Shown here: piece by piece, positions 10,886 to 58,759 of the stretch
Position numbering within the stretch: position 1 is the stretch's first letter
How the letters are laid out: each line of letters opens with the position of its first letter
Virus record (IMG/VR): IMGVR_UViG_3300028275_000007
Origin: a virus
Taxonomy: Duplodnaviria > Caudoviricetes
Direction: 5' to 3' (one strand)
Length of the DNA: 64,000 nucleotides
Notes under the pieces: model-generated
What the model was told of the DNA's origin: nothing
What the model saw: only the letters and a program-made list of their open reading frames with translations
Database searches by the model: none
Made by a program: the position numbers and the translations under genes

Positions 10886-11509
10886 CTAAAAAATCTTGCG
10901 CTGCTGCGCTTCGCGCTCAGGAATTTGCGCTGCGGCTTCGCCGACTCTATAGAAATTACTTCCCCAAGATCTAGGCATTGCATTAAAGCTCAGAGTTTTT
11001 CTTGGTTCTTCGCTGGTGTGTGCTGTGGTTGAGTGCTGTAGATAACTGGGCCATAGGAGTAGATCACCTTGTTCTACGGGCAGTATGACTTCTGTCTGTG
11101 ACCAGGCTGTGGGCCTTTGATCCAGTTTCATAGTCCAGTGTGTAGATGAGTTTAAGCCCTGTTTGTGAAATCTAATCTCTGTTTCGGGTGTTGACCAATA
11201 CCAAGTTCCCGACACTATGGAATTAGGGTGGCTGTGCTGATGTATGGAGTCGCCGGTATTATAGACATTGATCCAACTTTCTGTGATGTAGAGTGTATCC
11301 GTGATGCCCAGAACCTGTTCAGCCCACTGTTGAACCCTTTGTTCAATTATTTGGTGTAGATCTGGAACTGTGTCCAAAACTCTCTGGGACAGGGAGTAAC
11401 AGTGATTGGTCTGATATTCACAGGGAATCTGATCAAGCTGCTGTTGCCAGGTTCCGGGCCAAATCTGTTGGCGAGTCACGGGTTCGGAAAATAAGCCTAG
11501 GGTCTGCAT
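10886..11509 (-). CDS. 2OG-Fe(II) oxygenase (TIGR02466-like)
   Basis: ESWINVY..G....HSHPNSIVSGTWY; LLLWPSYLQH; RKTLSFN. Confidence 0.85.
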   Translation of the reverse strand: MQTLGLFSEPVTRQQIWPGTWQQQLDQIPCEYQTNHCYSLSQRVLDTVPDLHQIIEQRVQQWAEQVLGITDTLYITESWINVYNTGDSIHQHSHPNSIVSGTWYWSTPETEIRFHKQGLNSSTHWTMKLDQRPTAWSQTEVILPVEQGDLLLWPSYLQHSTTAHTSEEPRKTLSFNAMPRSWGSNFYRVGEAAAQIPEREAQQRKIF

Positions 11510-11565
11510 ATCAATATTTAATTCACTGACCAGTTTATGGGATAAGTATGTGACAAGGAGATACT

Positions 11566-12153
11566 ATGACTGAAGAACTGTTGCCTAAACTGACTCAAAT
11601 TGATGACCTTTTTGAGGGTCAGGTCCGGGGCTGGCTAGCTGAACGCATCGGCAACCCATTGACTAATTGGGGATTTTTTCCTCCAGAAATGGCCCGAGAT
11701 ATTCGCAGATACGACTGGCACCAATATACCAATGTGGTCTATGACAACGACACCGTGATCAACGAAGAACTAATGGACATCTGTCAAATGATCCTATTCC
11801 GAGCCTTGGATCATCAGGGCAAAAACCTAAGTAGAATTTTTAAAATAAGAGTAGTTAATTCTCTACCCGGAGATCGTGGCAATAGCCAACCGCACATTGA
11901 CATCACAGGCCCACATCAAACTGGCATTTATTTCCCCATGGATTCCGACGGCACCACAGACATTCTTCGTGAACGTTCTTGGATGCAGGACTGGGAATTA
12001 CCCCAGAATTTGGAGAACATTGTGCATCGTCTAGAACCCCGTGGTGGTACTTGGTACGACTTTGACGGCACACACTGGCGCTGGACTGGACGTCCTCAAG
12101 AACATCAACAGCGTATCTGTGTGATCTTCAATTACACAACCACAAGGGTATAA
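11566..12153 (+). CDS. putative 2OG-Fe(II) oxygenase/cupin-fold protein
   Basis: PHID (HxD), FDGTHWH-like segment, RICVIFN; AAGGAG RBS. Confidence 0.65.
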   Translation: MTEELLPKLTQIDDLFEGQVRGWLAERIGNPLTNWGFFPPEMARDIRRYDWHQYTNVVYDNDTVINEELMDICQMILFRALDHQGKNLSRIFKIRVVNSLPGDRGNSQPHIDITGPHQTGIYFPMDSDGTTDILRERSWMQDWELPQNLENIVHRLEPRGGTWYDFDGTHWRWTGRPQEHQQRICVIFNYTTTRV

Positions 12154-12156
12154 ATA
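12149..12156 (+). promoter_or_regulatory. T4-type late promoter
   Basis: TATAAATA upstream of 12178. Confidence 0.7.
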
Positions 12157-13267: not shown

Positions 13268-13701
13268 TGGTATAGGTAGTTTACACTATCTTCGTTTTCT
13301 CTATGAATCTCAGCACCGTTTTTCAAGTGAAATCTCTTGGCCATTTCTGTCTTAGGACTTAGAGTAACATAGGTTTCCACTTCAGGGTGTTCCTTTTTAA
13401 TGTGCTCTTGAGCCTGTTCGATTAGAGTACGGCCTGCACCAGCAGCATATGACCAAATAGTATAGAATACTGCGGTATTTGTGTTAATTGCAGCTTCGGC
13501 TAGATCGTTCACAGAACTAGGAATTTTTTCTAAGAACTTTACGCAGGTCACTGCCAGAGGTTCTTGTGTGGTTTCGTCGCGAAGAACAAAGATTTTTGAG
13601 TTTTGATTAACTCTTTGTTCAACGGGAATTTCAGGACGAACAGGATCGTCTTTGATTAAATTAAGTAGATTATCTGATAAGTCTTGGATGATGTGTAACA
13701 T
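13264..13701 (-). CDS. conserved phage protein, GNAT-like fold
   Basis: FYTIWSYAAGAGRTLI; TLSPKTEMAKRFHLKNGA; TATAAATA at 13723-13730. Confidence 0.65.
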   Translation of the reverse strand: MLHIIQDLSDNLLNLIKDDPVRPEIPVEQRVNQNSKIFVLRDETTQEPLAVTCVKFLEKIPSSVNDLAEAAINTNTAVFYTIWSYAAGAGRTLIEQAQEHIKKEHPEVETYVTLSPKTEMAKRFHLKNGAEIHRENEDSVNYLYH

Positions 13702-14465: not shown

Positions 14466-14846
14466 TTAAACTCCGTATTTGTTACGTTTTGGCTTTGCTA
14501 CAGAACTTGTTATATTAACATCTTTAGCTTCGGTTGATTTTGGAGTGCTAATTAGTTTAACGGCACCTGCGTGAACTTCTTTTGCTGCCTGCTTGACCAT
14601 TTTTTCGCTTTCGTTGTCATATGCTACAACAATAGCGTTTTCGCCCCAAGGAGTGTTAGGGGAAAACTGGTCTCGATCTGCAGGCTTACTTCCACCTGCT
14701 CTAGCTAGGGCCATACCAAATCTGTATTGTTTGTACGGATCTTGGTTCTGTAATGATGGAATAGAAAAGGTTGATGGTAGTGCATCAGCAACATCGTCTT
14801 GGATACTGCCTTCTCTAGCTTCGTTAATAAATTCTTTGGCTCGCAT
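14466..14846 (-). CDS. putative internal head protein (capsid-targeting-like N-terminus)
   Basis: MRAKEFINE resembles T4 CTS MKTYQEFIAE; TAAATA-N5-ATG. Confidence 0.65.
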   Translation of the reverse strand: MRAKEFINEAREGSIQDDVADALPSTFSIPSLQNQDPYKQYRFGMALARAGGSKPADRDQFSPNTPWGENAIVVAYDNESEKMVKQAAKEVHAGAVKLISTPKSTEAKDVNITSSVAKPKRNKYGV

Positions 14847-14850
14847 ATCA

Positions 14851-15090
14851 TTATTTAGCCCACATTAGATAGTAAGTAGCTAAGGTGCGTTCATCGTAGA
14901 ATTCTGCTATTAAACGACAATACATATCGTTTCTTTCAAGCACAACCTGACAATTAGTATGATTTTGATTTAACAACCATTTAGTATGATCTACACCAAT
15001 CGTACGGTGTACTTTAGGCCAATCGATTTCAATATATTCGCCCTCGTGTGGTAACCACTTTAACAGCTCTACCTTAGATGTCTTCATCAT
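14851..15090 (-). CDS. hypothetical protein
   Basis: Overlaps helicase 3' end; GGTGG upstream. Confidence 0.6.
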   Translation of the reverse strand: MMKTSKVELLKWLPHEGEYIEIDWPKVHRTIGVDHTKWLLNQNHTNCQVVLERNDMYCRLIAEFYDERTLATYYLMWAK

Positions 15091-18188: not shown

Positions 18189-19218
18189 ATTCGAGTCTCT
18201 CCAATTTGTGTTCTTGTTGCTTCTTAGCCATATTAATTTTAATCGATCCTTTTTGTGCTGTCTTTATTGCATCAACAATAACAAATAATTTTCCGTAGGA
18301 TTTTACAGCATCTGCAACGTCTTTTACATCGTCGTCCCAGTTAGGCATAGCCACTGACCAATTTAATTCGGCAGCTCTGTCAAATAATACTAGTCCTGCT
18401 TGATCTTGATCCGGAATTACAATAACTTCAGCACCTAGACTATTAATTATCCTAGATTGTTGTTCAGCTATATCGTTAGTAAGAAGAGCAACACCGTCTA
18501 TTGCCAATGCATCAAATGGACCTTCGCAGACAAATATATACTTCTGATTTTCTTTTTGACGGTCAAAGTTGAATACAAAATGTGGATGTTGATCTGAAAG
18601 ATATTTTGGTTTTCCGTCTCTAACTTTTCTAGCTGTATTTCCTACTATTCTTCCTTCCCATCTAAAAGGAACAATAACTCTATCAATATATCCAGGAGCC
18701 GGGCTCCAATAAAAATCATATTCAAATGGATTGTTATATCCTCTGCTGATTAGATATCTTAATACGTTTGAATAGTCTTCACCAATCTGTTCTTCAACTT
18801 CGCCTTCTATTAAATTCCCCCATTCTGCCAAAGGCATCGCACCTTCTGGTAATGCTTTATCTGTAAAATTTATTGGGGTGTTATCTTCTGAATGATATTC
18901 GTGATAATCGGGACCTTCTGTTTTAAGAGCTTCAAACACTAGATCTTTTATAAGGTCTTCACTGGCGCCCATCCATCGCGCCAGTGTTTTCATTTTTTCA
19001 CCAAAGGGTGCCCCTGGTTGCCAGCCTGTAGAAAACTTGCAGTTAAAGCAATTATAAACTACACTATTTCCGTCAAACCTAATACCACCACGTTTGCGAG
19101 TATCGGGACTATGGCCACGATGCTGGCAACAAGGGGCGTTAAACGATGTCCAACCAGACGGCGAGTGTTTGGCTCGCGGAGGAAGTAACGTTCGAAATTT
19201 ATCTACGACTAGTGTCAT
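18169..19218 (-). CDS. gp61: DNA primase (gp61-like; Zn finger plus TOPRIM)
   Basis: FNAPCC...YNCFNC zinc-binding domain; FVCEGPFDALAIDG; PDQD; KDVAD. Confidence 0.85.
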   Translation of the reverse strand: MTLVVDKFRTLLPPRAKHSPSGWTSFNAPCCQHRGHSPDTRKRGGIRFDGNSVVYNCFNCKFSTGWQPGAPFGEKMKTLARWMGASEDLIKDLVFEALKTEGPDYHEYHSEDNTPINFTDKALPEGAMPLAEWGNLIEGEVEEQIGEDYSNVLRYLISRGYNNPFEYDFYWSPAPGYIDRVIVPFRWEGRIVGNTARKVRDGKPKYLSDQHPHFVFNFDRQKENQKYIFVCEGPFDALAIDGVALLTNDIAEQQSRIINSLGAEVIVIPDQDQAGLVLFDRAAELNWSVAMPNWDDDVKDVADAVKSYGKLFVIVDAIKTAQKGSIKINMAKKQQEHKLERLEYAKENT

Positions 19219-19224
19219 AGATAT

Positions 19225-19253
19225 AGTATATTATCTATAGAGAACTTTGTCAA
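19225..19253 (-). promoter_or_regulatory. sigma70 promoter of primase, probably leaderless
   Basis: TTGACA-N17-TATACT-N6-ATG. Confidence 0.8.
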
Positions 19254-20310: not shown

Positions 20311-20338
20311 TTTTACGGACCTTTAGCATATTTATCGA

Positions 20339-25446: not shown

Positions 25447-26584
25447 CTAGATAAATTACACAAGGATGAGAATCAAACCAATCTTTTGTAATAACACTTG
25501 TTGGCGGATAAATGTTATTTGTTACTAACATTTTAACATCAAGGTTATCTTTAAACAACCATTTAGCTGGCTTAGATTCAAATATTAAAAATTTTCCAGT
25601 ATCCACTTTGCCGCCAACACCTGCTAGTTTAATCCAGTCATTAAGACCGGTCTTTGAATCTTTAGTATCTCTAAAACATACCTTAATTTCTTCTCTAGGA
25701 ACACTATTTTGATCAGCTGCTTTTACAAATTCTTGTAACCATTTTAGTGTGTCAGATGTTCTATCTAAAATTATACAGACTCTGCCTTTAACGGTAGTGC
25801 TAATGTTAAAGAAATCTTGAACATTTTTAATCCAGAATAAATTTTCAGACGAAGATGCTATTTTTTCTACTAAACTTACCGGATTTTTTTTCAATGGAAA
25901 TCCCATACTCTTAGCCAGTAATAAATCATTGTTTAATGATTCGGTGCGAGTATTTGACCACCATTCTTCGGTTTCTGGATCAGCATTTACTAATTCAACT
26001 TTTGAATTAATTATTTCCGAACAGGGAATAATGTTGTCTGAATTTTGCCATATTTCTTCAACATCTGACAACACACTCATAAAACTGTCGTCAATTACAA
26101 AGTTGTGTTTATTAGCAAATTCATATAGACTGATCAAGTTGTATTCGTAAAATTTTAAACGTCGAACTTTGTCTTCTTGATCCCAATGACTGACTCTAGT
26201 TGAATTAGGCAAGTTAACATTTATTTCATCGTCAAACTCTTTTTTCAATTGATATGGAAATTTTAGACAAATTTCTAAAGATCCATCTTTGTTTTCTACA
26301 TAGATTTTTTTTGTAAGATCTAGTACTCTAAAAGGTCTTTGCCATTGCGCTGTTAACAATGCGTCTTTGTAATCAAAACCCAATAATGCCGATACATTTT
26401 TGTATTTTTCTAATATTTTTAAAATGTAGTTAGCTTGATTTTTTGTTAGTTCGCTGTCATTGGAAATTTTCTCGTGAAAACTAAGAATAGGCGAGAAGTC
26501 CTGGTGCTGAACGTGTAGTTGACCAGATTGAACAAGAGTATAAAAACGAAGAAAAATGTCTTCGGCATACACAGAGCTTAACAT
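25397..26584 (-). CDS. hypothetical protein
   Basis: 395 aa ORF with its own promoter. Confidence 0.75.
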   Translation of the reverse strand: MLSSVYAEDIFLRFYTLVQSGQLHVQHQDFSPILSFHEKISNDSELTKNQANYILKILEKYKNVSALLGFDYKDALLTAQWQRPFRVLDLTKKIYVENKDGSLEICLKFPYQLKKEFDDEINVNLPNSTRVSHWDQEDKVRRLKFYEYNLISLYEFANKHNFVIDDSFMSVLSDVEEIWQNSDNIIPCSEIINSKVELVNADPETEEWWSNTRTESLNNDLLLAKSMGFPLKKNPVSLVEKIASSSENLFWIKNVQDFFNISTTVKGRVCIILDRTSDTLKWLQEFVKAADQNSVPREEIKVCFRDTKDSKTGLNDWIKLAGVGGKVDTGKFLIFESKPAKWLFKDNLDVKMLVTNNIYPPTSVITKDWFDSHPCVIYLGAAKPSTHKGRKIVEL

Positions 26585-26590
26585 TTAATT

Positions 26591-26619
26591 ATTATATAAC
26601 AGGCAGATATGAAAGTCAA
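26591..26619 (-). promoter_or_regulatory. sigma70 promoter, probably leaderless
   Basis: TTGACT-N17-TATAAT-N6-ATG. Confidence 0.8.
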
Positions 26620-34593: not shown

Positions 34594-34641
34594 TGTAGTC
34601 CAATTCTATTAACTGCTCATATTTAGTCGATAAATATTTCT

Positions 34642-35499
34642 ATGAAAATATTACTTACAGGCCATAGAGGATTTATTGGTAGCCATTATTATAATTTAAT
34701 TAAAGATAAACACGAAACCGTAGTATTTGATAAAAGAGAAGGCCAAGACCTTTGTTTACCAGACATAACAAATTCTTCTCCAAATTGTGATGTCGTTGTT
34801 CATATGGCCGCGACCAATGGAACCAAACTGTTCTACGAAAAACCAACTGAAGTTGCATTTAATAATACTTTACCAACATTTAATTTAATTAATAGATATA
34901 AAGGTACAGATACTAAATTTGTTTTTACAAGCACTTGTGAAATTTTTAATGGTGCTATTGATAAAGGACTATATCCAGTTCCCACTGATGAATCAGTTCC
35001 TGTGATGTTTGAAGATGTGATCAATCCTCGCTGGAGCTATAGTTTACCAAAAGCACTAGGAGAAAACTTAGTTGCTAATTCTGGATTAGATTGGTTAATT
35101 ATTAGATACTTTAATATCTACGGTCCTGGTCAGGTAGATCATTTCATCAGCGAATTTGTTGAACGTGTTGCCAAAGGTGAGTATTATATCAAAGGCAATG
35201 ATACAAGAAGTTTTTGTTATATCGACGATGCTGTTGAAATAACTCATAGACTAGTGACAAATAATAAAAATTATATAGTTAACGTAGGCAGACAAGAAGA
35301 AAATGAAATTGCTGAAGTAGCAAGAATTATTTTAGACATAATGGGAGTAGATCCGGAGAAATTAGAAATACTTCCAGGTCCAAAAGGTAGTGCAAAAAGA
35401 CGTTGCCCCGATACTACCCTGATGAAAAAATTAACCGGATTTACAGAATATACATCATTGAAAGACGGATTAAAGAAAACTGTTGAGAGCTTAATATGA
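34642..35499 (+). CDS. NAD-dependent epimerase/dehydratase (extended SDR)
   Basis: TGHRGFIG; YSLPK (YxxxK); RYFNIYGP; RSFCYIDD. Confidence 0.9.
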   Translation: MKILLTGHRGFIGSHYYNLIKDKHETVVFDKREGQDLCLPDITNSSPNCDVVVHMAATNGTKLFYEKPTEVAFNNTLPTFNLINRYKGTDTKFVFTSTCEIFNGAIDKGLYPVPTDESVPVMFEDVINPRWSYSLPKALGENLVANSGLDWLIIRYFNIYGPGQVDHFISEFVERVAKGEYYIKGNDTRSFCYIDDAVEITHRLVTNNKNYIVNVGRQEENEIAEVARIILDIMGVDPEKLEILPGPKGSAKRRCPDTTLMKKLTGFTEYTSLKDGLKKTVESLI

Positions 35500-41972: not shown

Positions 41973-43727
41973 TTACAGGCCTGCTAGTTCTCTGACTCTT
42001 GCTAGTTCAGCCAATTCAGGATTTTGTTCTGTAGTCTGCTCAGGAGCCATTCTTTCAACAAATTTGCGAGCAACCTGCTCTGCCTGCTCACCAAACTTCT
42101 TGCCTACCATTGTGCAAACACCTTCTGGGCCTTTGGGGAATGTACCTGATTCTTGGTCGTAAAATGAATGAATGAATTCAGCTAATTCTTTAACGCCCAT
42201 CTTGCCCTCGTGTCTTTCTTCTGGATCATCGCTGGCCATTTGTGGTTCTTCTGCAGGTGCTGCTGCTGGAACTTCTGCCGGTTCTTCTGCAGGAACTTCT
42301 GCTGCTGCTGGTTCTTCAGCTGCGGCTGCTCCCATATCGCCAAAGTCTAATGACTCTAGTGCCTCTGGTGCATTTAATTCTAACCAACCTTGGATTTGAG
42401 GGCGGACGTCTGCATTTGCATCTTCCGCCGCTGTTGCCTTAATTCGTTTGTATAATTCTGGATCTTCAATTAGGCCTTTTAAACTTTCAATTGCGTTTGT
42501 GCCATCTGTACCTGCAGGAAATTCTTGTCCAACTAATTCTTGTAATTTTTGTAAGGCTGATTGTTGTTCTTCTGGATCTTCAGAAGTTATAGCAGACTCT
42601 TCTCCAAGACCCATTACCCAGTTTTCAAACTTGGCAAATGGATCATCTTGTGTCTGCTCAACTTCGATGTCTTCTTGCATATCTTCTTGTGTTAAAGCGA
42701 CTATGTCGTCGTAGCCTATAGTGTTTCCTTCTTTCATTAGTCTATATAAGACCGGAAATACTGATGCAATGTCTTCTTTAAATGATCGTACTGTAAATTT
42801 TTCTTTGAAATCTTCAACTACATCCTGCGGTACTTCTTCGCTGTCATATGCCTGGAAATTTTCTCTATATGCTTCGTAGTGACTTTGTTTTGCTAGGGCC
42901 TTAATTTGCTCGCGTAGGCTATTTAGGTATTGTGTAGAACGTTCAACCACTGAATTTGTTTCTGAATTCATTAGATCGTTACGAACAACATAACCACCAA
43001 AGCTCTTTAATTGAGCAATTTCTTCACTCATTTGAATAATACTTTTACCAATGTCGTCATAGGGTACACCACCGTTGGCCACGTGGCGTTGCATAGCACG
43101 AGCACCAGCTAGGTGGATGAAAGGATATTTAAATCTTTCACCGTCTTGATTTTCTACAAAAAGTGCTGCAATGTGTCTTGTTCGTGCGCCAGGTTGTTGA
43201 TCATCCATTACTGCTTGACTATGTTTGATAATCAATTTAGTATCCATTAAATTCTGGTAACTCATTAATCTGCTACCGTACATTGAGCTTTCTGCCATAA
43301 TGCTTTCTCCGACTGGTTTCTGTATTGTGTTTGGTTGTGTTTGCTTAGGTTGCGCATTTGCAGCTAAAAATTCATAATCTCTACGATCTAAATTATCCTT
43401 AGCAATATCTCTTGTGTCAAATGCTAATAGTCTGCGTTTAGCAAATTCACGTAATTCTCGCAAAAACTTATACCAATTACCTTTCTGATGATCATCCATA
43501 CCTTCGGCAATTCCGTGACTGAAGTATACCTTCATAGAATTTGGTTCTGCTAGGCTAACACTAACGTGACCCATCGGTGTTTGACCTTCCATATAATCAA
43601 AATCAAAGAATCTAGCTTCTTCAGGATTGATGGTAATTTGGCCTGTTTCAGCACCTAATTTTAGGTTCTTAAAACGGCTTCTAATTTTATAGAATAAATC
43701 TGTAGCGATATTGTTTCTTGCGTCCAT
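41973..43727 (-). CDS. large acidic late protein, possible head core/scaffold
   Basis: TAAATA-N5-ATG; acidic EEPAA repeats; C-terminal ELARVRELAGL. Confidence 0.75.
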   Translation of the reverse strand: MDARNNIATDLFYKIRSRFKNLKLGAETGQITINPEEARFFDFDYMEGQTPMGHVSVSLAEPNSMKVYFSHGIAEGMDDHQKGNWYKFLRELREFAKRRLLAFDTRDIAKDNLDRRDYEFLAANAQPKQTQPNTIQKPVGESIMAESSMYGSRLMSYQNLMDTKLIIKHSQAVMDDQQPGARTRHIAALFVENQDGERFKYPFIHLAGARAMQRHVANGGVPYDDIGKSIIQMSEEIAQLKSFGGYVVRNDLMNSETNSVVERSTQYLNSLREQIKALAKQSHYEAYRENFQAYDSEEVPQDVVEDFKEKFTVRSFKEDIASVFPVLYRLMKEGNTIGYDDIVALTQEDMQEDIEVEQTQDDPFAKFENWVMGLGEESAITSEDPEEQQSALQKLQELVGQEFPAGTDGTNAIESLKGLIEDPELYKRIKATAAEDANADVRPQIQGWLELNAPEALESLDFGDMGAAAAEEPAAAEVPAEEPAEVPAAAPAEEPQMASDDPEERHEGKMGVKELAEFIHSFYDQESGTFPKGPEGVCTMVGKKFGEQAEQVARKFVERMAPEQTTEQNPELAELARVRELAGL

Positions 43728-43738
43728 AGTTATATTTA

Positions 43739-45325
43739 TCAAAACCCGCTGCTTACAAAGATAGGCAGCGGCATAGATTCCTCTGTAATTTTTTCAGTCA
43801 TTTTTTCGTAAACTGTAGGATCCCAATCTGCTAGTACGTCTGCCATACGTATGATCAGTAACGTAGAGCTCACTAGGTCGTCGTGTTCTCCTGTTTTGGC
43901 CTTAAAACCAAGTCCGCTGGCAACATACGTTTTTAACTCAGAAATCAGCGGTTTAGATGTAATTGTCATCTTATTAGTTTCTAGTAAATTTTTAAACTGA
44001 GAACAAGCAGTAACTTTACTGCGATGTGTAGTATTAAATCCTTTACGGAATTTACGAACGTGTCCTTTACGTATAGGCTCACTTAAGAATAAACCAGGAA
44101 AGTTTTCTTCTCCTATGTCGTTAATAACAATAAGAGCGGCTTCACCTAGAGAATTATTTTCAACAGAATAATAAATTTGCGGAACACCGCCTTTTTCTTC
44201 TCCGCGTGATTGAATGTATTTCAATATTTCACGCATATGTTTGACCTGTTGCTGTACTGGAGTAGTATTATGATGCCATTCCGCTACCTGAGTCATTGAG
44301 GGCATTTCAAAAACCTGTATAGCACCGTAGTCACCGCCTGTACCTAGACTAGGATCTAGAGCAACAAGATATGTGCATCTAGAATCTATATCTTTATACC
44401 AACGTGTTTGACCCATGGTCATAGTTGGATCAATTCCCTCTAATGCTGCAAGTTTAACTGAATTGATTAGTGTTTCGTCGAAGATCAAGAACTCACATTC
44501 AAACTCTCGGCGGAAACGTTCTTCACCAATTTTAGCACGTTCGACAGAGGCCCAGGCATCGTCGCGTAACGGGTTTTCACGCCAGTGAGCAAAGAATGGA
44601 AAGAATCCGTTAGGTCCTAATTTTGTCTCGTTGCCGTACTCGTCAAAACGTTTATTAGCTTCAGTCCAGATAAGAGCAAACTGATCTTCGTCCGAGTTTG
44701 GTGTTGATGTAATCAGTGCTTTACCACCTGTAGCCAATGTAGGAGATAGGGCAGTCCAAAACTCTTTGGCCTTTTCAGGTGGTTGAACAAATGCAAACTC
44801 GTCACAGTATATTAATGATAAAGACTTACCACGACCGGTGTTTTCTGTTGTTGTGGTAGCTTGAATACGTGCTCCGTTATCGTATTCGATTGTGTTTCTA
44901 TTGTATGAATAAACACCAGCACGAATAAAGTCAGGTAAGTTTTCGTAACCAAAACGGTAACGATCCATAATGTCTTTAGCACCTTCATATTTGTGTGCGG
45001 CAATAAGAACTTGGCAGTCTGGAACAAACATTGTGTACCACAGCAGGTAAGCAACTGCACAGGTTGTTTTACCCATCTGACGCGGTAACATTGCAATACA
45101 TTGCTTGTTTTCGTGATAGGCCTGTATTAGTCTAACCTGATATTCATAAGGTTCAAAAGGTATGCTACCTCTAACCGGGTGTTGAATTTTAATAAAGTTT
45201 CTAGCAAAGTACAACGGCCCGTTTACAGGATCCATACACTTTTCAAGATGTTCTACTTCCTCAAGTGTATACCTGGTTTGAGCGTGAGCTTTCTTAACTA
45301 AATTACCGTCTAATGATTTTGCCAT
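43739..45325 (-). CDS. gp17: terminase large subunit
   Basis: PRQMGKTT; YCDEFAF; ITSTPN; LDPS; HDDLV. Confidence 0.95.
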   Translation of the reverse strand: MAKSLDGNLVKKAHAQTRYTLEEVEHLEKCMDPVNGPLYFARNFIKIQHPVRGSIPFEPYEYQVRLIQAYHENKQCIAMLPRQMGKTTCAVAYLLWYTMFVPDCQVLIAAHKYEGAKDIMDRYRFGYENLPDFIRAGVYSYNRNTIEYDNGARIQATTTTENTGRGKSLSLIYCDEFAFVQPPEKAKEFWTALSPTLATGGKALITSTPNSDEDQFALIWTEANKRFDEYGNETKLGPNGFFPFFAHWRENPLRDDAWASVERAKIGEERFRREFECEFLIFDETLINSVKLAALEGIDPTMTMGQTRWYKDIDSRCTYLVALDPSLGTGGDYGAIQVFEMPSMTQVAEWHHNTTPVQQQVKHMREILKYIQSRGEEKGGVPQIYYSVENNSLGEAALIVINDIGEENFPGLFLSEPIRKGHVRKFRKGFNTTHRSKVTACSQFKNLLETNKMTITSKPLISELKTYVASGLGFKAKTGEHDDLVSSTLLIIRMADVLADWDPTVYEKMTEKITEESMPLPIFVSSGF

Positions 45326-45339
45326 ACTATTATTTAATG

Positions 45340-45367
45340 AAAAAAATAGGGCCCGGAGGCCCTATTT
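45340..45367 (-). terminator. Rho-independent terminator
   Basis: AAATAGGGCC/GGCCCTATTT stem with a T run on the minus strand. Confidence 0.8.
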
Positions 45368-46479: not shown

Positions 46480-47028
46480 TTAACTCCCTAAGGCGCTCTT
46501 AACGCCTGCTTTGTCTTGTTTGGCCTTAGGCAGCTTGTATTCTGTCTGCACACCGTCTTTTTTGCGTTCCTTGGCGGCCTTTGCTAAATCTTTCAAGAAA
46601 CTTTTATTAAAATCATCGCCGAAGTAGTCTTTGTGCTTTACCTTATCGTTGTAAGGCTCTGCTAATACTGATTCACCACTTGGTTCCATATCCGCTGTAT
46701 TGTGTTCTACTTCGCCTGCATCACCACCGTTTCTGACTCTAAAATTAGATTCTGGAACAAAGTATTTTACGTGTTCTGCAAGCTCAGGAGCAGTAATTGG
46801 ATATTCGCATACTACTTCAAATGTGTGAACTTCAACATTGCTTAGTTCCGGAAAATCTAGTGGAGTTGCTTGAATAGGTGTTTTAGATTTTTCAATGATT
46901 GCTGGATTTGCTTTTCCGATGCAATCTTTGAGTTCTTTAACAAAATTTTCAGGCAATTCGCCTGCTACCTTTAATCTAAAAGGGTAGCTCTTTTTGCTTT
47001 CGGCAAGATATTCTTTAAAAGTTTTCAT
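46480..47028 (-). CDS. putative internal head protein (capsid-targeting-like N-terminus)
   Basis: MKTFKEYLAES closely resembles T4 CTS MKTYQEFIAE; TAAATA-N5-ATG. Confidence 0.7.
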   Translation of the reverse strand: MKTFKEYLAESKKSYPFRLKVAGELPENFVKELKDCIGKANPAIIEKSKTPIQATPLDFPELSNVEVHTFEVVCEYPITAPELAEHVKYFVPESNFRVRNGGDAGEVEHNTADMEPSGESVLAEPYNDKVKHKDYFGDDFNKSFLKDLAKAAKERKKDGVQTEYKLPKAKQDKAGVKSALGS

Positions 47029-47036
47029 AGTAGTAT

Positions 47037-47519
47037 TTATGCTTTTCCGCCTAATTTTTTCAGTAGCTCATTGCGGTCTGTGATCACATACCCTTGGCCG
47101 TTGATAACATCGTTTGGATCGTTACCCGCATCGTTATCAATTTTTAATTTTTTAAGTTGTAGGTCAACAGCTTTTAATTTCTTTTCAATTTTGTTAGTTT
47201 TAGCAGTAATAGCGTTGCCCATCATAGAACTAGCTACTTCAAAAATACGACTAGCATAACGTACTTCTACGTTCATACCTAAATCCATAAGATCGTCGTA
47301 GGCCTGCTCTGCTTTTTTAGCTAGGTTATCTAGCTCGTTTTCGTCTAGATTTTCTAATTCTTGTATCTGCGGCAACGTGCTGGTAATTTTAGCTACTTCA
47401 GCATAACTATCATCTAAACTTTTAACCTGCTCGTGGGTTGGAACAGGAGTAGTATCTTCAGCAGCCTTTACAGCCTCAGCTGAATCTAAGTTAAAGAGTT
47501 CTTCAAGTTTCTTGGTCAT
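47037..47519 (-). CDS. probable terminase small subunit (gp16-like)
   Basis: 160 aa; RYASRIFEVASSMM...KKLK..DLQLKK helical pattern like gp16; near terL. Confidence 0.55.
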   Translation of the reverse strand: MTKKLEELFNLDSAEAVKAAEDTTPVPTHEQVKSLDDSYAEVAKITSTLPQIQELENLDENELDNLAKKAEQAYDDLMDLGMNVEVRYASRIFEVASSMMGNAITAKTNKIEKKLKAVDLQLKKLKIDNDAGNDPNDVINGQGYVITDRNELLKKLGGKA

Positions 47520-47526
47520 ACTTTAC

Positions 47527-47967
47527 TTATTTCCGTTTGCCGCCTTGGTGAAAAATATCATTTTCACTAACTACTCGAAATCTAACACCCTGTTGTTTGC
47601 ACCATTTATTTGCTGCTTCCCATTTGGCCATATTCTTAACATACTGTTCTTGGTTGTACAAGCTCTTGCCAACTTTTTCTAAAATAGTATGATTGCTAGG
47701 TTTAACTTCTACTACTTCGGCGTGTTTACTGCCATTCTTGTCAACATAGACAATAAAGAAGTCTGGGACATAGATTGTGCTTTTTCCTGTTAAGGGATCT
47801 CTATAAGGTATTTGTATACTTTCACTGGCCCAATTTTGTACGCCAGGATGTTCGTCAAGCATTCGCATAAAAACAAATTCCCAACTACTACGTGCCAAAG
47901 GAGTTTTTTTCCCAACATACTTGTCAGGATTTTTCATTTCAAATCTTCCCTGTGCAAATTTTGCCAT
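47527..47967 (-). CDS. gp4: head completion nuclease (gp4, TnsA-like)
   Basis: GRF...NPDKY; RSSWE; WASE...IPY; YVPDF; EVKP; KWEAA. Confidence 0.9.
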   Translation of the reverse strand: MAKFAQGRFEMKNPDKYVGKKTPLARSSWEFVFMRMLDEHPGVQNWASESIQIPYRDPLTGKSTIYVPDFFIVYVDKNGSKHAEVVEVKPSNHTILEKVGKSLYNQEQYVKNMAKWEAANKWCKQQGVRFRVVSENDIFHQGGKRK

Positions 47968-48333: not shown

Positions 48334-49410
48334 TTAATTTCCTGTTAGATTTCTTTGTGATGCAGTAGTTGTATTTTCTGTTGATGCACTCTTTGGAAAT
48401 ATTGCGCCAACAACACCTCCAACTGTGGATACTGCTGATGAAATATTTCCAGGATTACTTAGAATATTAATTGCTTCAGATTTTAATTGTGCTGTAGATA
48501 ATTGTTTAACATTTTTGTATGTGTTAACTGCTTTGATAGCAGTACTCATAAATCCACCCCAACTATCAAATGCTGTTCCGTCACCTACTGCACCGAACAC
48601 TGATTCTAGTCCGTCTAGTACACCGCCTTCACCTGTTAGTGTGGCCACGCCTCCGCCGGCAACTGAGATAGGACTTGGTGTTGTATCGTAATGAAGATTT
48701 GCAAAACCTTTAGGATTATTGTATGACACAGTTCCTGCTGAATATTTTACAGCTTCGTATTCTAATGTCATTTGACTTTCATTAAATTCTGATGCAGAAT
48801 AGTCCATAGCACCGTGTTGCCAAGATTTGATTCTTGGATTCACTAGTGTATATCCGATGAATCGTCGTCGACTCATTGTGTATATACTCACTGAATTAAA
48901 AAATGGATCGGATACATCGTTATCTAAACCGTATCGGAATAGATCTAAATTAGTGTTTGCAGGTCGAAGATGTGTAGCTGAATATGCTGCATTAGGATTC
49001 AATCTATCAGCAATATAATAGCCATAGTATATTGCCCATAACGCATTAACTACTCCGTCACTGTCGTCGTGTAAGGATATATTAATTGGCTCGTAGTTAA
49101 TGCCTTTGTATACAAGTTTTTTTCTATTATATTGATTTTTAACAATAGAATCAAAATTAAATTTTGGTAAATCGCAAGACTTTACCAACATCCCAACTTC
49201 TTGAGAATTTTCATTTGACCATCCAGGAGACCTAATTGTATGTTTGTTTAAATCAAATCTAACATAGTATAAAAATTTAGTCTTGGGTGATAATCTAAAA
49301 GAATTATCAATGAATAGTCGTGTGGCGTGTTGCCAATTGGCTTGTTGTCCTTTGGGATTTAATAATCCTTCAGATACACCGGTAAGGAATCTAGTAAAGT
49401 AGTTGGCCAT
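48334..49410 (-). CDS. tail-tube-fold baseplate/tube initiator (gp54/gp48-like)
   Basis: VKSCDLPKF...YEPINISLHDD...LVNPRIKSW...MTLEYE; adjacent to gp19. Confidence 0.7.
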   Translation of the reverse strand: MANYFTRFLTGVSEGLLNPKGQQANWQHATRLFIDNSFRLSPKTKFLYYVRFDLNKHTIRSPGWSNENSQEVGMLVKSCDLPKFNFDSIVKNQYNRKKLVYKGINYEPINISLHDDSDGVVNALWAIYYGYYIADRLNPNAAYSATHLRPANTNLDLFRYGLDNDVSDPFFNSVSIYTMSRRRFIGYTLVNPRIKSWQHGAMDYSASEFNESQMTLEYEAVKYSAGTVSYNNPKGFANLHYDTTPSPISVAGGGVATLTGEGGVLDGLESVFGAVGDGTAFDSWGGFMSTAIKAVNTYKNVKQLSTAQLKSEAINILSNPGNISSAVSTVGGVVGAIFPKSASTENTTTASQRNLTGN

Positions 49411-49427
49411 ATTAATATTTATGCCAC

Positions 49428-53100: not shown

Positions 53101-53580
53101 CCCGCCAACTACTGTTGGTGCAGATCCATTCCATTCTTGAATACCCCAAGTTGTTGCTTGAGTGTCAATCCACCATTGACCGTTTGTTGGGTTCGCTCCC
53201 GGGGCGTCTACTTGAGCCTCTAGTTCGTCTAAGTTAATATCAGCACGAACGATAAATGCCGCGTTGCTAACACCCAATAAACTATATGCTGCTAATAATC
53301 CGTATTCGTTTCTTTCTGAACCGTGTACAGGAGTCGAACTCGCTGTCTGTTCAAAGAAAGGAACACCGAAGAAATCTGTTAGATCTCTCTGACTGGTTAA
53401 TTTAAATGCCTTACCAGCATTGGCTTTTGTTGTTGCGGACGCGGTACCTGTTCCCGATCCGTTTGCTTTATCTTGCGCTGTAGCTACTACGATAAGAGGA
53501 GTAGTACCAGGTTCTGCTGGTGTATAAAAACTCTCGTCGATAACTGTAACCGCTACGCCCGGTGATTGTAATGTTGCCAT
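50122..53580 (-). CDS. gp18: tail sheath protein with large insertion (1152 aa)
   Basis: LQSPGVAVTVIDES; WFAPAGTRRG; DRINVARL; FEPND; DIAIEPVKAVEFI. Confidence 0.95.
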   Translation of the reverse strand: MATLQSPGVAVTVIDESFYTPAEPGTTPLIVVATAQDKANGSGTGTASATTKANAGKAFKLTSQRDLTDFFGVPFFEQTASSTPVHGSERNEYGLLAAYSLLGVSNAAFIVRADINLDELEAQVDAPGANPTNGQWWIDTQATTWGIQEWNGSAPTVVGGQKFTNKVPLVLTDADTAKISNNAPKTSVGAIGDYAVVFQTVTGDGSFGANEEFARVYFKSAGAPASTGGVDAVDAGQWVLVGSTDWKASWPVASGSAYSGSISGNLYVNNSLIAGGTVATIASNINAAAITGVSAQAINNRLYIYSNGTSAADGDAGDSTGADGAVKLENGTANWSTLGITAGTYLSPALQQTPHTSVPAFKISDNVGTVGGNPTGSVWIKTTEPNNGARWRVKRWSAGTLSWASYEAPIHTSTGAANYYLDRSGGGANISKDSLFVQSNATEAAGFDATPETAEFRVWKRNVSANAVTSITSAVIKDSTLAAGPYSFDLAESLKGQATLDTAVTINFSAAGNSEDADAIATAINAAGFTNIVASVTTVSSTSAKLVISHKLGGDFSLTDGTGSPIGGLFTPYSINTLSGTENLYEAQSAAGYDYLASGWMPLAASNPRFAASGDAPLNEPQDGQMWYNPNFSEVDVMVHNGATWVGYRHASAQYAESATSTRIGYAPLVSASNPYQAGSTQTGDLWISTADMENFPTIYRFNNNLTDIADVSQRWELVDKTDQTTEEGILFADARWNTTGTTNAMSTIEDLLQNNFLDPDAPDPALYPKGMLLWNLRRSGGNVKKYMNGYIDTASDNPRTSTATLAGSAFVSGSGLSMEAYWTDRWVTASGNNEDGSGTFGRHAQRKVVTQALKSVVDTSSEIRDTERRNFNLIACPGYPELMSNLVNLNIDRGITAFVIGDTPLRLAADATSLTTWGTNANLVTDNGDDGIVTYDEYLATYYPNGYTTDLSGAGAVVPASHMMLKTIALSDNVSYPWFAPAGTRRGGITNATAVGYIDAMTGEFQTVALNEGQRDTLYDLKINPIPFFNGVGLVAYGQKTRARNASALDRINVARLVVYLRSQLNKLARPYIFEPNDKITRDEIKQAAESLLLELVGLRAIYDFAVVCDESNNTPSRIDRNELYVDIAIEPVKAVEFIYIPLRVKNTGEI

Positions 53581-53685
53581 TCCCTATTTCTCCTGGTAAT
53601 AGTTGCTCATAATATTTAGCGTACTATTATAAAAATGGGTAGTTATACAACCTGAAAAAGGGGAAGAAAAGGTGTAAATATTGAT

Positions 53686-54024
53686 ATGAGACCACTTTGT
53701 AAGGCCTGTAATGAACGGCCTAGAGCATTAAATTATTATAAAGGTAAAAAACCTTATTATAGAACGCTCTGCGAAGCGTGTCTAGCTCACGGACCTAAGG
53801 CACATATACCACGTTGGAAACGTTCTGGTTATAAAATAAAGTCACAATGTGAAAAGTGCGGACATCGTAGCCCGCACATGGAGGTATTTAGGGTATTTCA
53901 CATAGACGGCAATTTAGACAACTGCCGCCCTAGTAACTTAAAAACAATCTGTGCCAATTGTGCTCAGGTGCTTCACAAGGAGGGCATCACTTGGCGTCAA
54001 GGGGACTTGGTCGCTGACTATTGA
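53686..54024 (+). CDS. small HNH endonuclease-like zinc-finger protein
   Basis: CKAC, CEAC, CEKC; HIDGNLDNCRPSNLKTICANC; TAAATA-N5-ATG. Confidence 0.75.
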   Translation: MRPLCKACNERPRALNYYKGKKPYYRTLCEACLAHGPKAHIPRWKRSGYKIKSQCEKCGHRSPHMEVFRVFHIDGNLDNCRPSNLKTICANCAQVLHKEGITWRQGDLVADY

Positions 54025-54624: not shown

Positions 54625-54644
54625 AATAGCCTCCAATTAAGACT

Positions 54645-54673
54645 ATTATACTATACTAAAATATTAAGGTCAA
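54645..54673 (-). promoter_or_regulatory. sigma70 promoter of dNMP kinase
   Basis: TTGACC-N17-TATAAT; GGAGG RBS. Confidence 0.8.
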
Positions 54674-55428
54674 CCTATAATCCAACCATAGCCCATACCG
54701 CCTGGTACAAGTTTCATCAAATCATCAATGAGCTTGTCCATTTCGGCTTGAGCTTCAGTTTTAAGTGCTGCGCCGTTTAGGCTAGAACCGCCCTGTGGGC
54801 CTGCGATTTGAGCAAACTTCTCGCGGGCTTGACCTAGCATCATCTTGCAGTTTGCCAGTGCATAATCCTTAACCCATTGTCCTGAATAGATATCGTCGAT
54901 AATAGCAAAGTCAGGTTTACTGTTATAAACCATAAGCATTACACTTTCTTCGCCTCGTGGTCTTTGCTGAATAATGAGTTTGTGACTCTGTGGATGCCAA
55001 GTAAAGTTAATAAAACTACCAAACATTTTACCAACTAATTCTTGATACTGTGCAAATAATTCATATGTTAGCAATCCTCCCATATTTGTAGAGCTTAACA
55101 AATATGTGTTTGTGTATGCTAAATTGAATGGTTCAAAAACTGTTCCGCCCGTGCCGTTACCAGTCCTTGATCCAACACTTCGTCTAAAAATTTGACGGAC
55201 TTGTTGTATTTCTTTTGGTAAAATATATTCGTTTTGATCTTGTACCAGTGTTAAAAACACGTAAGATTCCTCTACAGCATTATCGCTTCTTTGCCTAAAA
55301 ACTGCAAGGGCTCTATTTAGAGCTGTTTCGTAGTGAGTTGGATCTAACTCAACATCAATCATACCGTCACCTAGCATAGTGCGGCAATAATTATAAACGC
55401 TTTGGCGGGATTCGTCGTTTGTACTCAT
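54670..55428 (-). CDS. gp13: neck protein gp13
   Basis: LGDGMIDVELD; WVKDYALA..K..LG..R.KF...GP.G...LNG. Confidence 0.85.
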   Translation of the reverse strand: MSTNDESRQSVYNYCRTMLGDGMIDVELDPTHYETALNRALAVFRQRSDNAVEESYVFLTLVQDQNEYILPKEIQQVRQIFRRSVGSRTGNGTGGTVFEPFNLAYTNTYLLSSTNMGGLLTYELFAQYQELVGKMFGSFINFTWHPQSHKLIIQQRPRGEESVMLMVYNSKPDFAIIDDIYSGQWVKDYALANCKMMLGQAREKFAQIAGPQGGSSLNGAALKTEAQAEMDKLIDDLMKLVPGGMGYGWIIG

Positions 55429-55433
55429 AATAC

Positions 55434-55454
55434 TATTTATCGTAGCGGTAAATA
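55434..55454. promoter_or_regulatory. back-to-back late promoters for gp13 (minus) and gp14 (plus)
   Basis: TAAATA minus at 55434-55439; TAAATA plus at 55449-55454. Confidence 0.75.
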
Positions 55455-55455
55455 T

Positions 55456-56856
55456 ATGACTATGCCAAGACTTTCGTTATATCGCCCGCAAAAGGGCAAC
55501 GACTATAAATTCATCGATAAAACCGTATGGGAAATGTTCCAGGTTGGGGGTACAGATGTATGTGTACACAGGTACCTAGGACCAGATATTTCTGTCCAAG
55601 GAAACACTCCTAGCACTCCTGCTTACGACTCTGATAATCCTTTTCAAATACAGGATATGTTATTTTTAGAAAATCGCGATCGAAAATATGACCCAGATGT
55701 TTATGTATTGCGAGGTGTTTATAATATGCAAGACATTGACTTTAATCTAAGTCAATTCGGGCTCTTCTTGCAAAACGATACAATTTTTATTACATTTCAT
55801 ATCAACGATACAGTAGAAAAACTTGGCAGAAAAATTATTGCAGGAGATGTTATAGAGCTGCCTCATTTAAAAGATGAATATGCTCTTAATGATCTAAGTT
55901 TTGCATTGAAAAGATTTTATGTTGTTGAAGAAGTTAATCGCGCAGCAGAAGGATTTTCAGTAACTTGGTATCCCCATTTATATCGTGCAAAATGTAAACC
56001 ACTAGTTAATAGTCAAGAATATAAACAGATCCTTGACGGAATAGCCAACAGCGACGCTGATAAAGGTAATTACAATTCATCGATTACTTATTATCCTGGA
56101 GATATTATTACTGGCCCGGACGGTGTAAAGTATGAAGTAATAAAAGAAGTTACTGGTATTGATCCTCCTAATACTGAATATTATCAAATAGCAGGTACGT
56201 TAAGAGATTTAATGAGTACATACAATAAAGAAATGGAGATTACTCAAGCTATCCTTAATCAAGCTGAAGCCGATGCTCCAAAAAGTGGGTACGACACTTC
56301 TAAATTTTGGACTCTTCAAAGATCGGACGACGGTACTGCTTCTTTGATTACAGTAGACTCTGATCAAATTAATCAATATTCTGCCGACACTGATATTGTA
56401 ACGGATAAAAATGGAAATCCTATATTAGACGCTGAGGGCAATGAAGTATCTGCCGTTAACGCTGCTTCAACTTATCCGTCTGTAGATGGAAAAGGTTATG
56501 TAGGATATCTAACTAAAGATGGTATAGCACCTAATGGTGCTCCAGTCTCTGTAGGCTATTCTTTCCCGTACAATCCAGTTGAAGGTCAGTTTCATCTTAG
56601 AACAGATTATCTTCCTAACAGATTGTTTAGATTTAACGGAACACGCTGGATGAAATTTGAAGACAACGTTCGTATGACTATGGATAACCTAGGTGCTAGT
56701 GATGTTGTTACCAGTGCATTGTTTGAAGGTAAGGATGTTAGACAAACACAAAAAACATCGTTTATTAACAATACATCAGTTGCAAATATTGATGGACATA
56801 CAATCAAACAGAAACAAAGCCTATCTAAGGCTCTTAGACCACAGGCGGACGAATAA
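55456..56856 (+). CDS. gp14: neck protein gp14-like with C-terminal extension
   Basis: QFGLFLQND.IFITFH...LGRK...GDVIELP...YRAKCK; divergent from gp13. Confidence 0.75.
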   Translation: MTMPRLSLYRPQKGNDYKFIDKTVWEMFQVGGTDVCVHRYLGPDISVQGNTPSTPAYDSDNPFQIQDMLFLENRDRKYDPDVYVLRGVYNMQDIDFNLSQFGLFLQNDTIFITFHINDTVEKLGRKIIAGDVIELPHLKDEYALNDLSFALKRFYVVEEVNRAAEGFSVTWYPHLYRAKCKPLVNSQEYKQILDGIANSDADKGNYNSSITYYPGDIITGPDGVKYEVIKEVTGIDPPNTEYYQIAGTLRDLMSTYNKEMEITQAILNQAEADAPKSGYDTSKFWTLQRSDDGTASLITVDSDQINQYSADTDIVTDKNGNPILDAEGNEVSAVNAASTYPSVDGKGYVGYLTKDGIAPNGAPVSVGYSFPYNPVEGQFHLRTDYLPNRLFRFNGTRWMKFEDNVRMTMDNLGASDVVTSALFEGKDVRQTQKTSFINNTSVANIDGHTIKQKQSLSKALRPQADE

Positions 56857-58355
56857 TGGATTACTTTTACGACGGGCAAATAAGACGCTATGTAACACAG
56901 TTTATGCGTGTGTTTATTGGATTTAAATGGCAAGCTGGCGATGGAACTCAACAAACTGTACCTGTAATGTACGGGGATATGAGTAGACAAGTAGCAAATA
57001 TAATTAAAGAAAATAGCGAAAACAAAATGCCTTCAGTTCCAAAGATTGCCTGTTATATTACAGGGTTAGAAATGGATACTACAAGGTTATCTGACCCTAC
57101 GTTTGTTAGTAAAGTTCATATTAGAGAACGAAGATTTACAGATGCAGGTGGGACTAGAGAATATCAAAATACACAAGGCGGTAATTATACAGTAGAACGT
57201 CTAATGCCTACACCATTTAAATTAACAATGAAAGCAGATATATGGACTTCGAGTACTGATCAAAAATTGCAATTGTTAGAACAAATACTGGTTTTGTTTA
57301 ATCCGTCCCTTGAATTACAAACCACCGACAACTATATTGATTGGACTAGTTTAAGTGCGTTATATCTTACAACTCCTACTTGGACTTCACGATCTATTCC
57401 AGCAGGAGCCGAAAGTGAAATTGATATTTCATCATTAGAATTTGAAATGCCTATATGGTTAACTCCTCCTGCTAAGGTTAAGAAACTAGGCATTGTGCAG
57501 AGTGTCATATCTAATGTGTTTATGGACAGTGGCGATATTATTAACTTAGATGATTTAATATACAATCAAAGAATTGGAGCATTTGGTACTACTACTAATA
57601 GATATAGAGTATTATTGTTTAAATCTAATACAGGTAACTTAAATGATCATCAGTACGACCTAACTCTAGTTAATCCTACACACGCTGTACTGGCATTAGG
57701 ATTGGATCAAAAAGAATATGCTAATGGTGCGCCTTTAGAGTGGGCTAAAATTTTAGAAGTTCAGGGCGGATACATTCCAGGCAGTGATATTTGGTTTAAA
57801 AAGCCTGATGGATCAGAAATTCTAGGCACATTTGTTATTAATCCTTTAGATCCTACAATCTTAACAGTAACACTAGATCAAGATACATATCCTAGCAATG
57901 ATGATATAGCAAGTTCAATTCCTGGAGGAGAAACCAGAGGAACTGTAGATGCTATTATTGATCCTTACAAATTTAATCCGTTAGAAGTTTTTGGATCTTT
58001 AGAAAATATTCCTCTTGGTATTAGATATTTGATGTTAGACGATATTAATAACAGTACCAATAGAGGAGACTTTAATAGATTGTACGAAGGGTCTGATAGT
58101 TCTAAAGACCCGTATGACGGCCCAGATGGATGGAAAGATGTTCACGGTTCTGATCCAGTAGTTAAGGCTAATTCTGTAATAGAATGGGATGGAGAAACTT
58201 GGACAACAATTTGGGATCCAGATCTAGCATCTGAAAATTTCTATATTCAAAATATTCGAACCGGCGTTAAGTATAAGTGGGACGGAGTACAATGGCTCAA
58301 AGCATTTGAAGGTGAATACGGGCCAGGAGACTGGAACTTCAAACTTATCTCTTGA
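56856..58355 (+). CDS. gp15: tail sheath stabilizer/terminator gp15-like with C-terminal extension
   Basis: YFYDGQIRRY; VPVMYG; PTPF.L....DIW; QLLEQIL..FNP. Confidence 0.8.
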   Translation: MDYFYDGQIRRYVTQFMRVFIGFKWQAGDGTQQTVPVMYGDMSRQVANIIKENSENKMPSVPKIACYITGLEMDTTRLSDPTFVSKVHIRERRFTDAGGTREYQNTQGGNYTVERLMPTPFKLTMKADIWTSSTDQKLQLLEQILVLFNPSLELQTTDNYIDWTSLSALYLTTPTWTSRSIPAGAESEIDISSLEFEMPIWLTPPAKVKKLGIVQSVISNVFMDSGDIINLDDLIYNQRIGAFGTTTNRYRVLLFKSNTGNLNDHQYDLTLVNPTHAVLALGLDQKEYANGAPLEWAKILEVQGGYIPGSDIWFKKPDGSEILGTFVINPLDPTILTVTLDQDTYPSNDDIASSIPGGETRGTVDAIIDPYKFNPLEVFGSLENIPLGIRYLMLDDINNSTNRGDFNRLYEGSDSSKDPYDGPDGWKDVHGSDPVVKANSVIEWDGETWTTIWDPDLASENFYIQNIRTGVKYKWDGVQWLKAFEGEYGPGDWNFKLIS

Positions 58356-58366
58356 TAAGTAAAGGT

Positions 58367-58759
58367 ATGCAACAGCGTGCCGGATTACTTTTTCTATCAA
58401 AAATAACAGGTAGAATATTTCTATTATTGGAAGACTCAAAATGGACTGTTCCAACATTTTTGCGAACAGGTCCTCTTTTAGCTGATGCCAATCCATTATT
58501 AAACAGGTATAGCGAAGGTCGAGTACTTCCTATAGAACTTTATCTCAGCGAGGATAAAGGCTTCGAATACGGTACCTATGTCTGTGTTGTAGAAACAGAA
58601 TTTTTTGGATCCAATGAAGAAACAATATGCTGGTCCAACATAGATAATCTTCCAAAAAATTTACACACCGGTTTAAAAACTACATTAAATAATGGACTAA
58701 TACGAGCGAAAATTGAAACTATAATGGTGATAGAAAATGCTTCCAACATTACGAACTGA
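58367..58759 (+). CDS. degenerate Nudix-fold-like protein
   Basis: RAGLLF..K.TGRIFLL start and LHTGL end resemble Nudix; no intact Nudix box; TAAGTA-N5-ATG. Confidence 0.55.
   Translation: MQQRAGLLFLSKITGRIFLLLEDSKWTVPTFLRTGPLLADANPLLNRYSEGRVLPIELYLSEDKGFEYGTYVCVVETEFFGSNEETICWSNIDNLPKNLHTGLKTTLNNGLIRAKIETIMVIENASNITN

Follow-up and report, generated by a model that had tools for sequence, protein, structure and literature searches.

T4-type late promoter boxes set against start codons suggest leaderless late mRNAs in a jumbo myovirus lineage

The window analyzed here is a 64,000-nucleotide (nt) stretch of the IMG/VR record IMGVR_UViG_3300028275_000007, from an uncultured jumbo myovirus. In it, the hexamer TAAATA stands exactly 5 nt before the ATG of a set of genes that includes terL, other virion genes, and genes for enzymes, a layout that is strongly non-random and in which no Shine-Dalgarno (SD) sequence precedes the start codon. 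It seems likely to us that the hexamer is the core of a -10-like box, NTAAATA, of phage late promoters of the T4 type and, jointly with this, that these promoters abut the start codons so as to produce leaderless late mRNAs. We refer to such arrangements below as fused sites.

Spacing between the TAAATA box and the start codon

TAAATA-N5-ATG (N5 standing for the five intervening nt) occurs 10 times in the window against an expectation of 1.66 +/- 1.34, and none of 100 dinucleotide shuffles reached 10. The window is contained in a 110,417-bp viral contig (CheckV completeness, 31%). Across this contig, 12 of the 60 copies of TAAATA have an ATG at exactly N5, each other spacing from 0 to 30 being met 0 to 4 times. 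When only open reading frames (ORFs) of at least 60 amino acids (aa) are counted, ten sites fall at N5, one at N4, two at N7, and one at N8, the next appearing only at N18. Eleven control hexamers gave no such spike, with the exception of TAAGTA at N4, which is the variant box of gene 47037-47519. Every site named in the original prediction was found, that is, nine with TAAATA-N5-ATG, TAAGTA-N5-ATG at 58367(+), and TAAGTA-N4-ATG at 47519(-) (Table 1). The tenth TAAATA-N5-ATG, at 53879(-), opens a frame of only 16 aa and is probably due to chance.

The same arrangement is seen in related phages. At least 589 relatives are present in IMG/VR, and the best 80 of these contigs, with TerL proteins 83-90% identical, were compared. 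At these loci, again for ORFs of at least 60 aa, 191 distinct boxes lie at N5 and 24 at N4, with other short spacings almost nil. The distribution is bimodal; the box is found either at N4-5 or at N16-18 and beyond, in the latter case with an SD sequence in the leader. Spacings from N6 to N15 are nearly empty, and leaders too short to hold an SD sequence are nearly absent.

Two features of the start codon itself accompany this spacing. The codon at N4-5 is ATG in 215 cases and GTG or TTG in 1; leaderless initiation is expected to need AUG. The base at -1 is a pyrimidine at 212 of the 215 distinct fused sites, and in SD-led genes it is mostly A (39 of 61). Bacterial transcription starts usually favor a pyrimidine at -1 followed by a purine at +1. 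Fused genes make up about 6-10% of the genes of this phage, with about a dozen in the contig and about 25 in G001, a complete 363,943-bp genome among the best 80 relatives.

Table 1. Promoter boxes close to start codons in the window, with one leadered late promoter for comparison
Positions	Strand	Feature	Remark
7635..7672	+	TTGACA-17-TAAAAT-N6-ATG, 74-aa gene	
10576..10592	+	TAAATA-N8-ATG before gene 10590-10853 (87 aa)	near-leaderless variant
11507..11520	-	TAAATA-N5-ATG of gene 10886-11509 (2OG-Fe(II) oxygenase)	divergent intergenic region
14844..14857	-	TAAATA-N5-ATG of gene 14466-14846 (126 aa, no family)	
19216..19253	-	TTGACA-17-TATACT-N6-ATG, DNA primase gene (18169-19218)	
26582..26619	-	TTGACT-17-TATAAT-N6-ATG, 395-aa gene 25397-26584	
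34631..34644	+	TAAATA-N5-ATG of gene 34642-35499 (nucleotide-sugar epimerase)	
43725..43738	-	TAAATA-N5-ATG of gene 41973-43727 (584-aa virion protein)	box overlaps terL end; kept in relatives
45323..45366	-	terminator hairpin + T-run (~45340-45365), TAAATA (45331-45336), N5, ATG of terL (43739-45325)	
47026..47039	-	TAAATA-N5-ATG of gene 46480-47028 (182-aa virion protein)	box TAA doubles as the stop codon of the gene upstream
47517..47529	-	TAAGTA-N4-ATG of gene 47037-47519 (160 aa)	variant box GATAAGTA kept in relatives
49408..49421	-	TAAATA-N5-ATG of gene 48334-49410 (358 aa, weak tail-tube-like match)	terminator directly upstream
53580..53618	-	leadered late promoter of sheath gene (50122-53580): TAAATA 53613-53618, ~27-nt leader with CAGGAGA	
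53675..53688	+	TAAATA-N5-ATG of gene 53686-54024 (HNH-like, 112 aa)	divergent from sheath gene
55426..55439	-	TAAATA-N5-ATG of gene 54670-55428 (gp13-like head-tail adaptor)	-1 often C in relatives
55449..55464	+	divergent TAAATA with in-frame ATGs at N1 (55456) and N7 (55462, T before)	464-aa gene ending 56856; also in G001
58356..58369	+	TAAGTA-N5-ATG of gene 58367-58759 (130 aa)	abuts the gp15-like gene's stop codon

Fused ATGs as protein starts and the box as a promoter

Comparison among relatives shows the fused ATGs to be the true protein starts, with conservation at the protein level from codon 2 onward and non-coding features immediately before the ATG. For terL, 76 of 78 relatives have, in order, a hairpin with compensatory stem changes, a run of seven T's, CA[GT]TAAATA, four to six drifting bases, and the ATG; from codon 2 onward, synonymous changes appear across the relatives, such as TCA to AGT (Ser) and TTA to CTC (Leu). 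In the orthologues of terL and of the genes at 41973, 46480, 47037, 48334, 53686, and 54670, the box and its spacing are kept and the spacer letters drift. The fused ATG is also the first or nearly the first start in each ORF. Mis-called starts were considered as a source of the pattern and are ruled out by the N-terminal conservation. The SD-led ssb, tube, and sheath genes keep their SD sequences in relatives, and strong SDs are kept by the sheath, tube, and major head genes, as had been predicted for abundant structural genes.

A natural rearrangement bears on the same point. In two relatives (L020, 3295-3861, and L023, 170-736), a 188-aa gene is inserted between the terL terminator and late box and terL itself. 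There the fused ATG (N4) belongs to the inserted gene, and terL is now joined to it by stop-start coupling (GTAAATG); the N terminus of terL is unchanged where the gene is coupled instead of fused. By eye, the product of the insert looks like an S-adenosylmethionine (SAM)-dependent methyltransferase. At terL of Pseudomonas phage PA5oct (L001:2956-2985), the annotated start lies inside the terminator hairpin, and the conserved N terminus begins at the next ATG (ATG GCA), which is 8 nt after the T-run and has neither an SD sequence nor a TAAATA box.

The original prediction had taken the box to be the full T4 octamer TATAAATA. This part of it has to be revised, in that the octamer is not enriched (3 found against 5.8 expected), its first two letters are not conserved here, and NTAAATA is conserved instead, with an invariant TAAATA core and A favored at N (-12). 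The late box of T4 lies at -13 to -6, and in other T4-like phages, too, the T at -13 shows little conservation (PMC1524935). Conservation is found at -12 to -6 and at -1 only, with none upstream of -13 and no -35-like signal.

Because the same box also precedes SD-led late genes such as those for the sheath and tail fibre, TAAATA is better regarded as a promoter signal than as a translation signal. Some 15 copies precede, by 18-70 nt, genes that have a clear SD sequence, among them the sheath gene, the tail-fibre gene, and gene 13264-13701. About half of the 60 copies in the contig fall within its approximately 5% of non-coding DNA, nearly all of them facing a gene. Overall the hexamer is depleted more than twofold relative to a first-order expectation (60 versus 136 in the contig; 145 versus 379 in G001). 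A late sigma factor of the gp55 family (phrog_234, E about 1e-25) was found in all five of the long relatives.

Two other identities for the box were tried and rejected. A weak sigma70 -10 element does not fit, given that there is no T at -7 and no -35 and that the genome has near-perfect TTGACA-17-TATAAT promoters. Nor can TAAATA be a mere stop-restart signal (TAA and then ATG), as most sites have no ORF ending there.

Transcript starts, read-through, and translation

We consider it likely that host RNA polymerase, carrying a phage gp55-type sigma factor, reads NTAAATA as in T4. With TAAATA at -11 to -6 and a spacing of N5, +1 would fall on the A of the ATG, and no SD sequence is possible because the box and spacer fill the room before the start codon; this geometry, put forward in the original prediction, holds. 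The 11 nt before each fused ATG consist of the box and an AT-rich spacer, preceded in turn by a terminator, a divergent gene, or a gene end. A box placed 4-5 bp before the ATG would in this way give an mRNA without a 5' leader and without an SD sequence, which may be recognized through its 5'-terminal AUG, either by 70S ribosomes or by 30S subunits with IF2 and N-formylmethionyl-tRNA (fMet-tRNA). Other late units would use the same box with a 13-32-nt SD-bearing leader, and genes within operons would depend on SD sequences or on stop-start coupling. Taken together, the pyrimidine at -1 of N4-5 sites, the use of ATG only, the bimodal spacing, the class-specific fusion described below, and the insertion in L020 and L023 are best fitted by leaderless initiation.

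Fusion is not restricted to late boxes. The prediction that the leaderless class is specific to late genes did not survive, inasmuch as the primase gene and at least two other window genes are fused to host-type promoters (Table 1). Two more host-type N6 fusions lie in the contig to the left of the window, and G001 has 10 host-type TTGACA-17-TANNNT fusions at N5-6, followed by an empty zone up to N16. The distance differs by class, with TTGACA-17-TANNNT (canonical sigma70) fused at N6 and TAAATA (gp55) at N5, and because it is class-specific, each promoter class appears to put its own +1 on the A of the ATG. Promoter-ATG fusion is thus probably a general design of this phage clade, commonest at late promoters. 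It is plausible, in a small sample with only a handful of annotations, that the late members form a low-copy class comprising TerL, the adaptor, the HNH-like protein, and enzymes. The predicted immunity of these genes to a shut-off aimed at SD-led mRNAs gains no support here, the search for a RegB-type nuclease (see below) being uninformative on it.

The early genes also show a leadered type. The left 11 kb holds small plus-strand genes with TTGACA-17-TATAAT promoters and stereotyped leaders of about 20 nt that end in GGAGCG(A). This extended SD stands 3-11 nt before the ATG, and it is present in 14 copies in the early block (the contig left of the window plus window positions 1-8700, plus strand) and is rare elsewhere.

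Six riverine metatranscriptome runs hold the stretch, and four of these were mapped; the data are assembled contigs and so give no starts, strands, or levels. The late region is represented in the RNA libraries of these four runs. For X19, no listed contig lies over 53595-53694, the divergent promoter region between the sheath and HNH-like genes; an uncovered part of this kind proves nothing. Contig ends common to the four runs (50146 and 51279) coincide with strain variation and hence were not used.

Several observations weigh against leaderless late mRNAs. RNA contigs cannot display 5' ends, so that the starts proposed here come from promoter geometry. One RNA contig (44835-47599) bridges the terL terminator/promoter junction, and another (X19, 54540-55463) reaches 35 nt past the ATG at 55428 on its upstream side. 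Read-through RNA must thus contain these ATGs internally, unless contaminating DNA gave rise to the contigs. Four fused genes (43727, 47028, 47519, and 58367) lie directly behind the stop codon of a co-directional gene and, for that reason, may also be expressed by coupling on read-through RNA. Fused genes are not less structured than SD-led ones over the first 40 nt from the AUG (p = 0.31). No gp55 gene was found in the window's own 110-kb fragment, and because this contig is only 31% complete, the presence of gp55 applies to the clade rather than to the window genome. Finally, PF09116 (the gp45 clamp C-domain, the single model tried) had no match in 5 records; a sliding clamp was likewise undetected in Pectobacterium phage CBB (PMC5259590).

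The bridging contigs and the four genes behind stop codons would be expected if transcripts began farther upstream and were longer, with the AT-rich, SD-less stretch acting as an S1-dependent landing site or a reinitiation site and the box acting as a promoter partly or not at all. In all four genes the stop codon is within 12 nt, and in two it is inside or beside the box. We regard this explanation as unlikely. AT-richness in general would not fix a hexamer at N4-5 together with a pyrimidine at -1 over hundreds of distinct sites, and most fused sites follow terminators or sit in divergent intergenic regions with no ORF ending upstream. The same hexamer is found 18-37 nt upstream of SD-led genes, where no translational role is possible, and fusion of this kind is seen at host-type promoters too, with a spacing particular to them.

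The spacing data bear on a second alternative, in which the promoter is real and RNA synthesis begins one to a few bases off the A, or at multiple positions, so that leaders of 1-5 nt are made and the spacing reflects packing. Spacing does range from N4 to N7 across orthologues and genes. The conserved pyrimidine at -1, the A at +1, and the near-empty range from N6 to N15 nevertheless point to the A itself, and we think such displaced starts quite improbable. Leaders of 1-5 nt behave as leaderless in translation in any case, and there would be little practical difference from leaderless mRNAs.

It is also conceivable that TAAATA marks an RNA-processing site, at which a phage or host endonuclease cuts late transcripts just before the AUG to leave monophosphate 5'-AUG ends. 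The read-through contigs at some junctions are compatible with cleavage of this kind, for which we found no direct support. Against it stand the agreement of the motif with the T4 late box, the gp55 of relatives, and the way in which TAAATA in divergent intergenic regions faces outward on both strands in the manner of promoters. We searched for a RegB-type nuclease and found none; the control of that search was silent too, which makes the result uninformative. We give this explanation very little credence.

If leaderless initiation from the late box is accepted, one can envision a further, rather doubtful, consequence, namely promoter-gated translation. ORFs without an SD sequence would be translatable only from transcripts of their own promoter, and internal copies on read-through or antisense-driven RNA would stay silent. 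As parts of the same doubtful proposal, translation of the terminase, neck, and other dose-sensitive genes might be locked to the firing of gp55 promoters, and a phage initiation factor 1 (IF-1) might belong to a reprogramming of initiation that favors 5'-AUG mRNAs late. A bacterial-type IF-1 of 71-76 aa (PF01176, above the family cut-off) is encoded in relatives (G001:C1:264587-264799(-), which is L103:4587-4799(-), as well as G003 and G004). It was not found in the window's own contig fragment, and when the IF-1 of the relatives was used to search an atlas, nothing pointed to a host.

Genomic setting and related systems

The window TerL is 55% identical to that of Pseudomonas phage PA5oct, 52% to that of Sinorhizobium phage Phosso, and 44% to that of CBB. 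Near letter-for-letter copies of the window DNA occur in river metagenomes and metatranscriptomes. The bulk of the window is made up of replication genes (ssb, UvsX, and primase), a low-GC block with sugar enzymes, and a virion/packaging module with TerL, sheath, tube, head closure, gp13-like, and gp15-like genes; the portal and major head genes lie just outside.

The low-GC block (20000-36000; 34-36% GC versus about 40% elsewhere) consists of minus-strand genes of 190-500 aa beside the nucleotide-sugar epimerase gene. Conceivably this is a glycosylation island bordered by late boxes (34620-34644 and 27449-27466). The gene divergent from the epimerase gene (33853-34593) has a TAAATA of its own at 34620-34625(-), 26 nt before its ATG. 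In the virion module, three giant minus-strand ORFs of 2151, 2222, and 1822 aa (59011-63999 and beyond) presumably encode tail or fibre proteins. Within the sheath gene, at 50970-51248, all four mapped runs have a contig that skips 277 nt, with unread letters between and at high depth; this probably reflects a co-occurring strain with a different sheath insertion domain.

T4 late transcription uses the gp55 sigma factor, the gp33 co-activator (a small, fast-diverging protein), and the gp45 clamp, and T4 late mRNAs carry SD-bearing leaders. The likeness to T4 lies in the TAAATA core, the lack of a -35, the gp55 family of the relatives, and the position of the box before virion and packaging genes. 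T4 differs in having no N5 spike, with 2 of 12 ATAAATA-N0-12-ATG matches at N5; these are at 113272-113286(+) and 131165-131179(-) of NC_000866.

For the Rak2-like jumbo phages CBB and GAP32, an ATAAATA late-promoter motif has been predicted before structural genes, and CBB encodes a gp55-like sigma factor, CBB_244; leaderless genes are not mentioned in that paper (PMC5259590). The motif is the one seen here, and CBB and PA5oct are distant relatives (TerL, 44-55% identical). In these two and in Phosso, however, the box is followed by leaders that carry an SD sequence, and a spike at N5 is absent.

Leaderless phage genes have been described elsewhere. In the Thermus phages phiYS40 and Lalka27a, most transcripts are leaderless and begin on the A or G of the start codon, also at late genes with a phage-specific promoter (bioRxiv 10.64898/2026.04.20.719267). 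That promoter is TAGGGT and belongs to a different sigma system; the Thermus phage starts were mapped experimentally, whereas ours are inferred, and most genes are leaderless there compared with the approximately 6-10% fused here. In Deinococcus-Thermus, the host phylum, leaderless mRNAs are widespread, and a -10 element a few bp before the ORF, without a -35, directs leaderless expression (PMC12340547). This cellular pattern depends on the primary sigma factor of the host, unlike the phage late box and the second, full -35/-10 class seen here.

A cultured phage, Pelagibacter myophage HTVC008M, shows the same TAAATA-N5-ATG spike, with 14 of 34 N2-9 matches at N5. It is T4-like, infects a marine host, and at 147 kb does not count as a jumbo phage. 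Our literature search turned up no published account of gp55-type late promoters with leaderless genes, nor of the layout in HTVC008M.

Leaderless mRNAs are usually seen as a trait of a host phylum or as an oddity, lambda cI for instance. In the present lineage, a sigma system specific to the phage seems wired to make leaderless mRNAs for a fixed set of late genes, and dozens of environmental jumbo-phage contigs keep this wiring. If this is true, gene calling and promoter prediction in such phages would have to include a leaderless model, and the box-to-start distance of gp55-type promoters would be readable straight from genomes. HTVC008M on Pelagibacter would then be usable to ask how dose and timing are set by leaderless versus SD-led versus coupled initiation.

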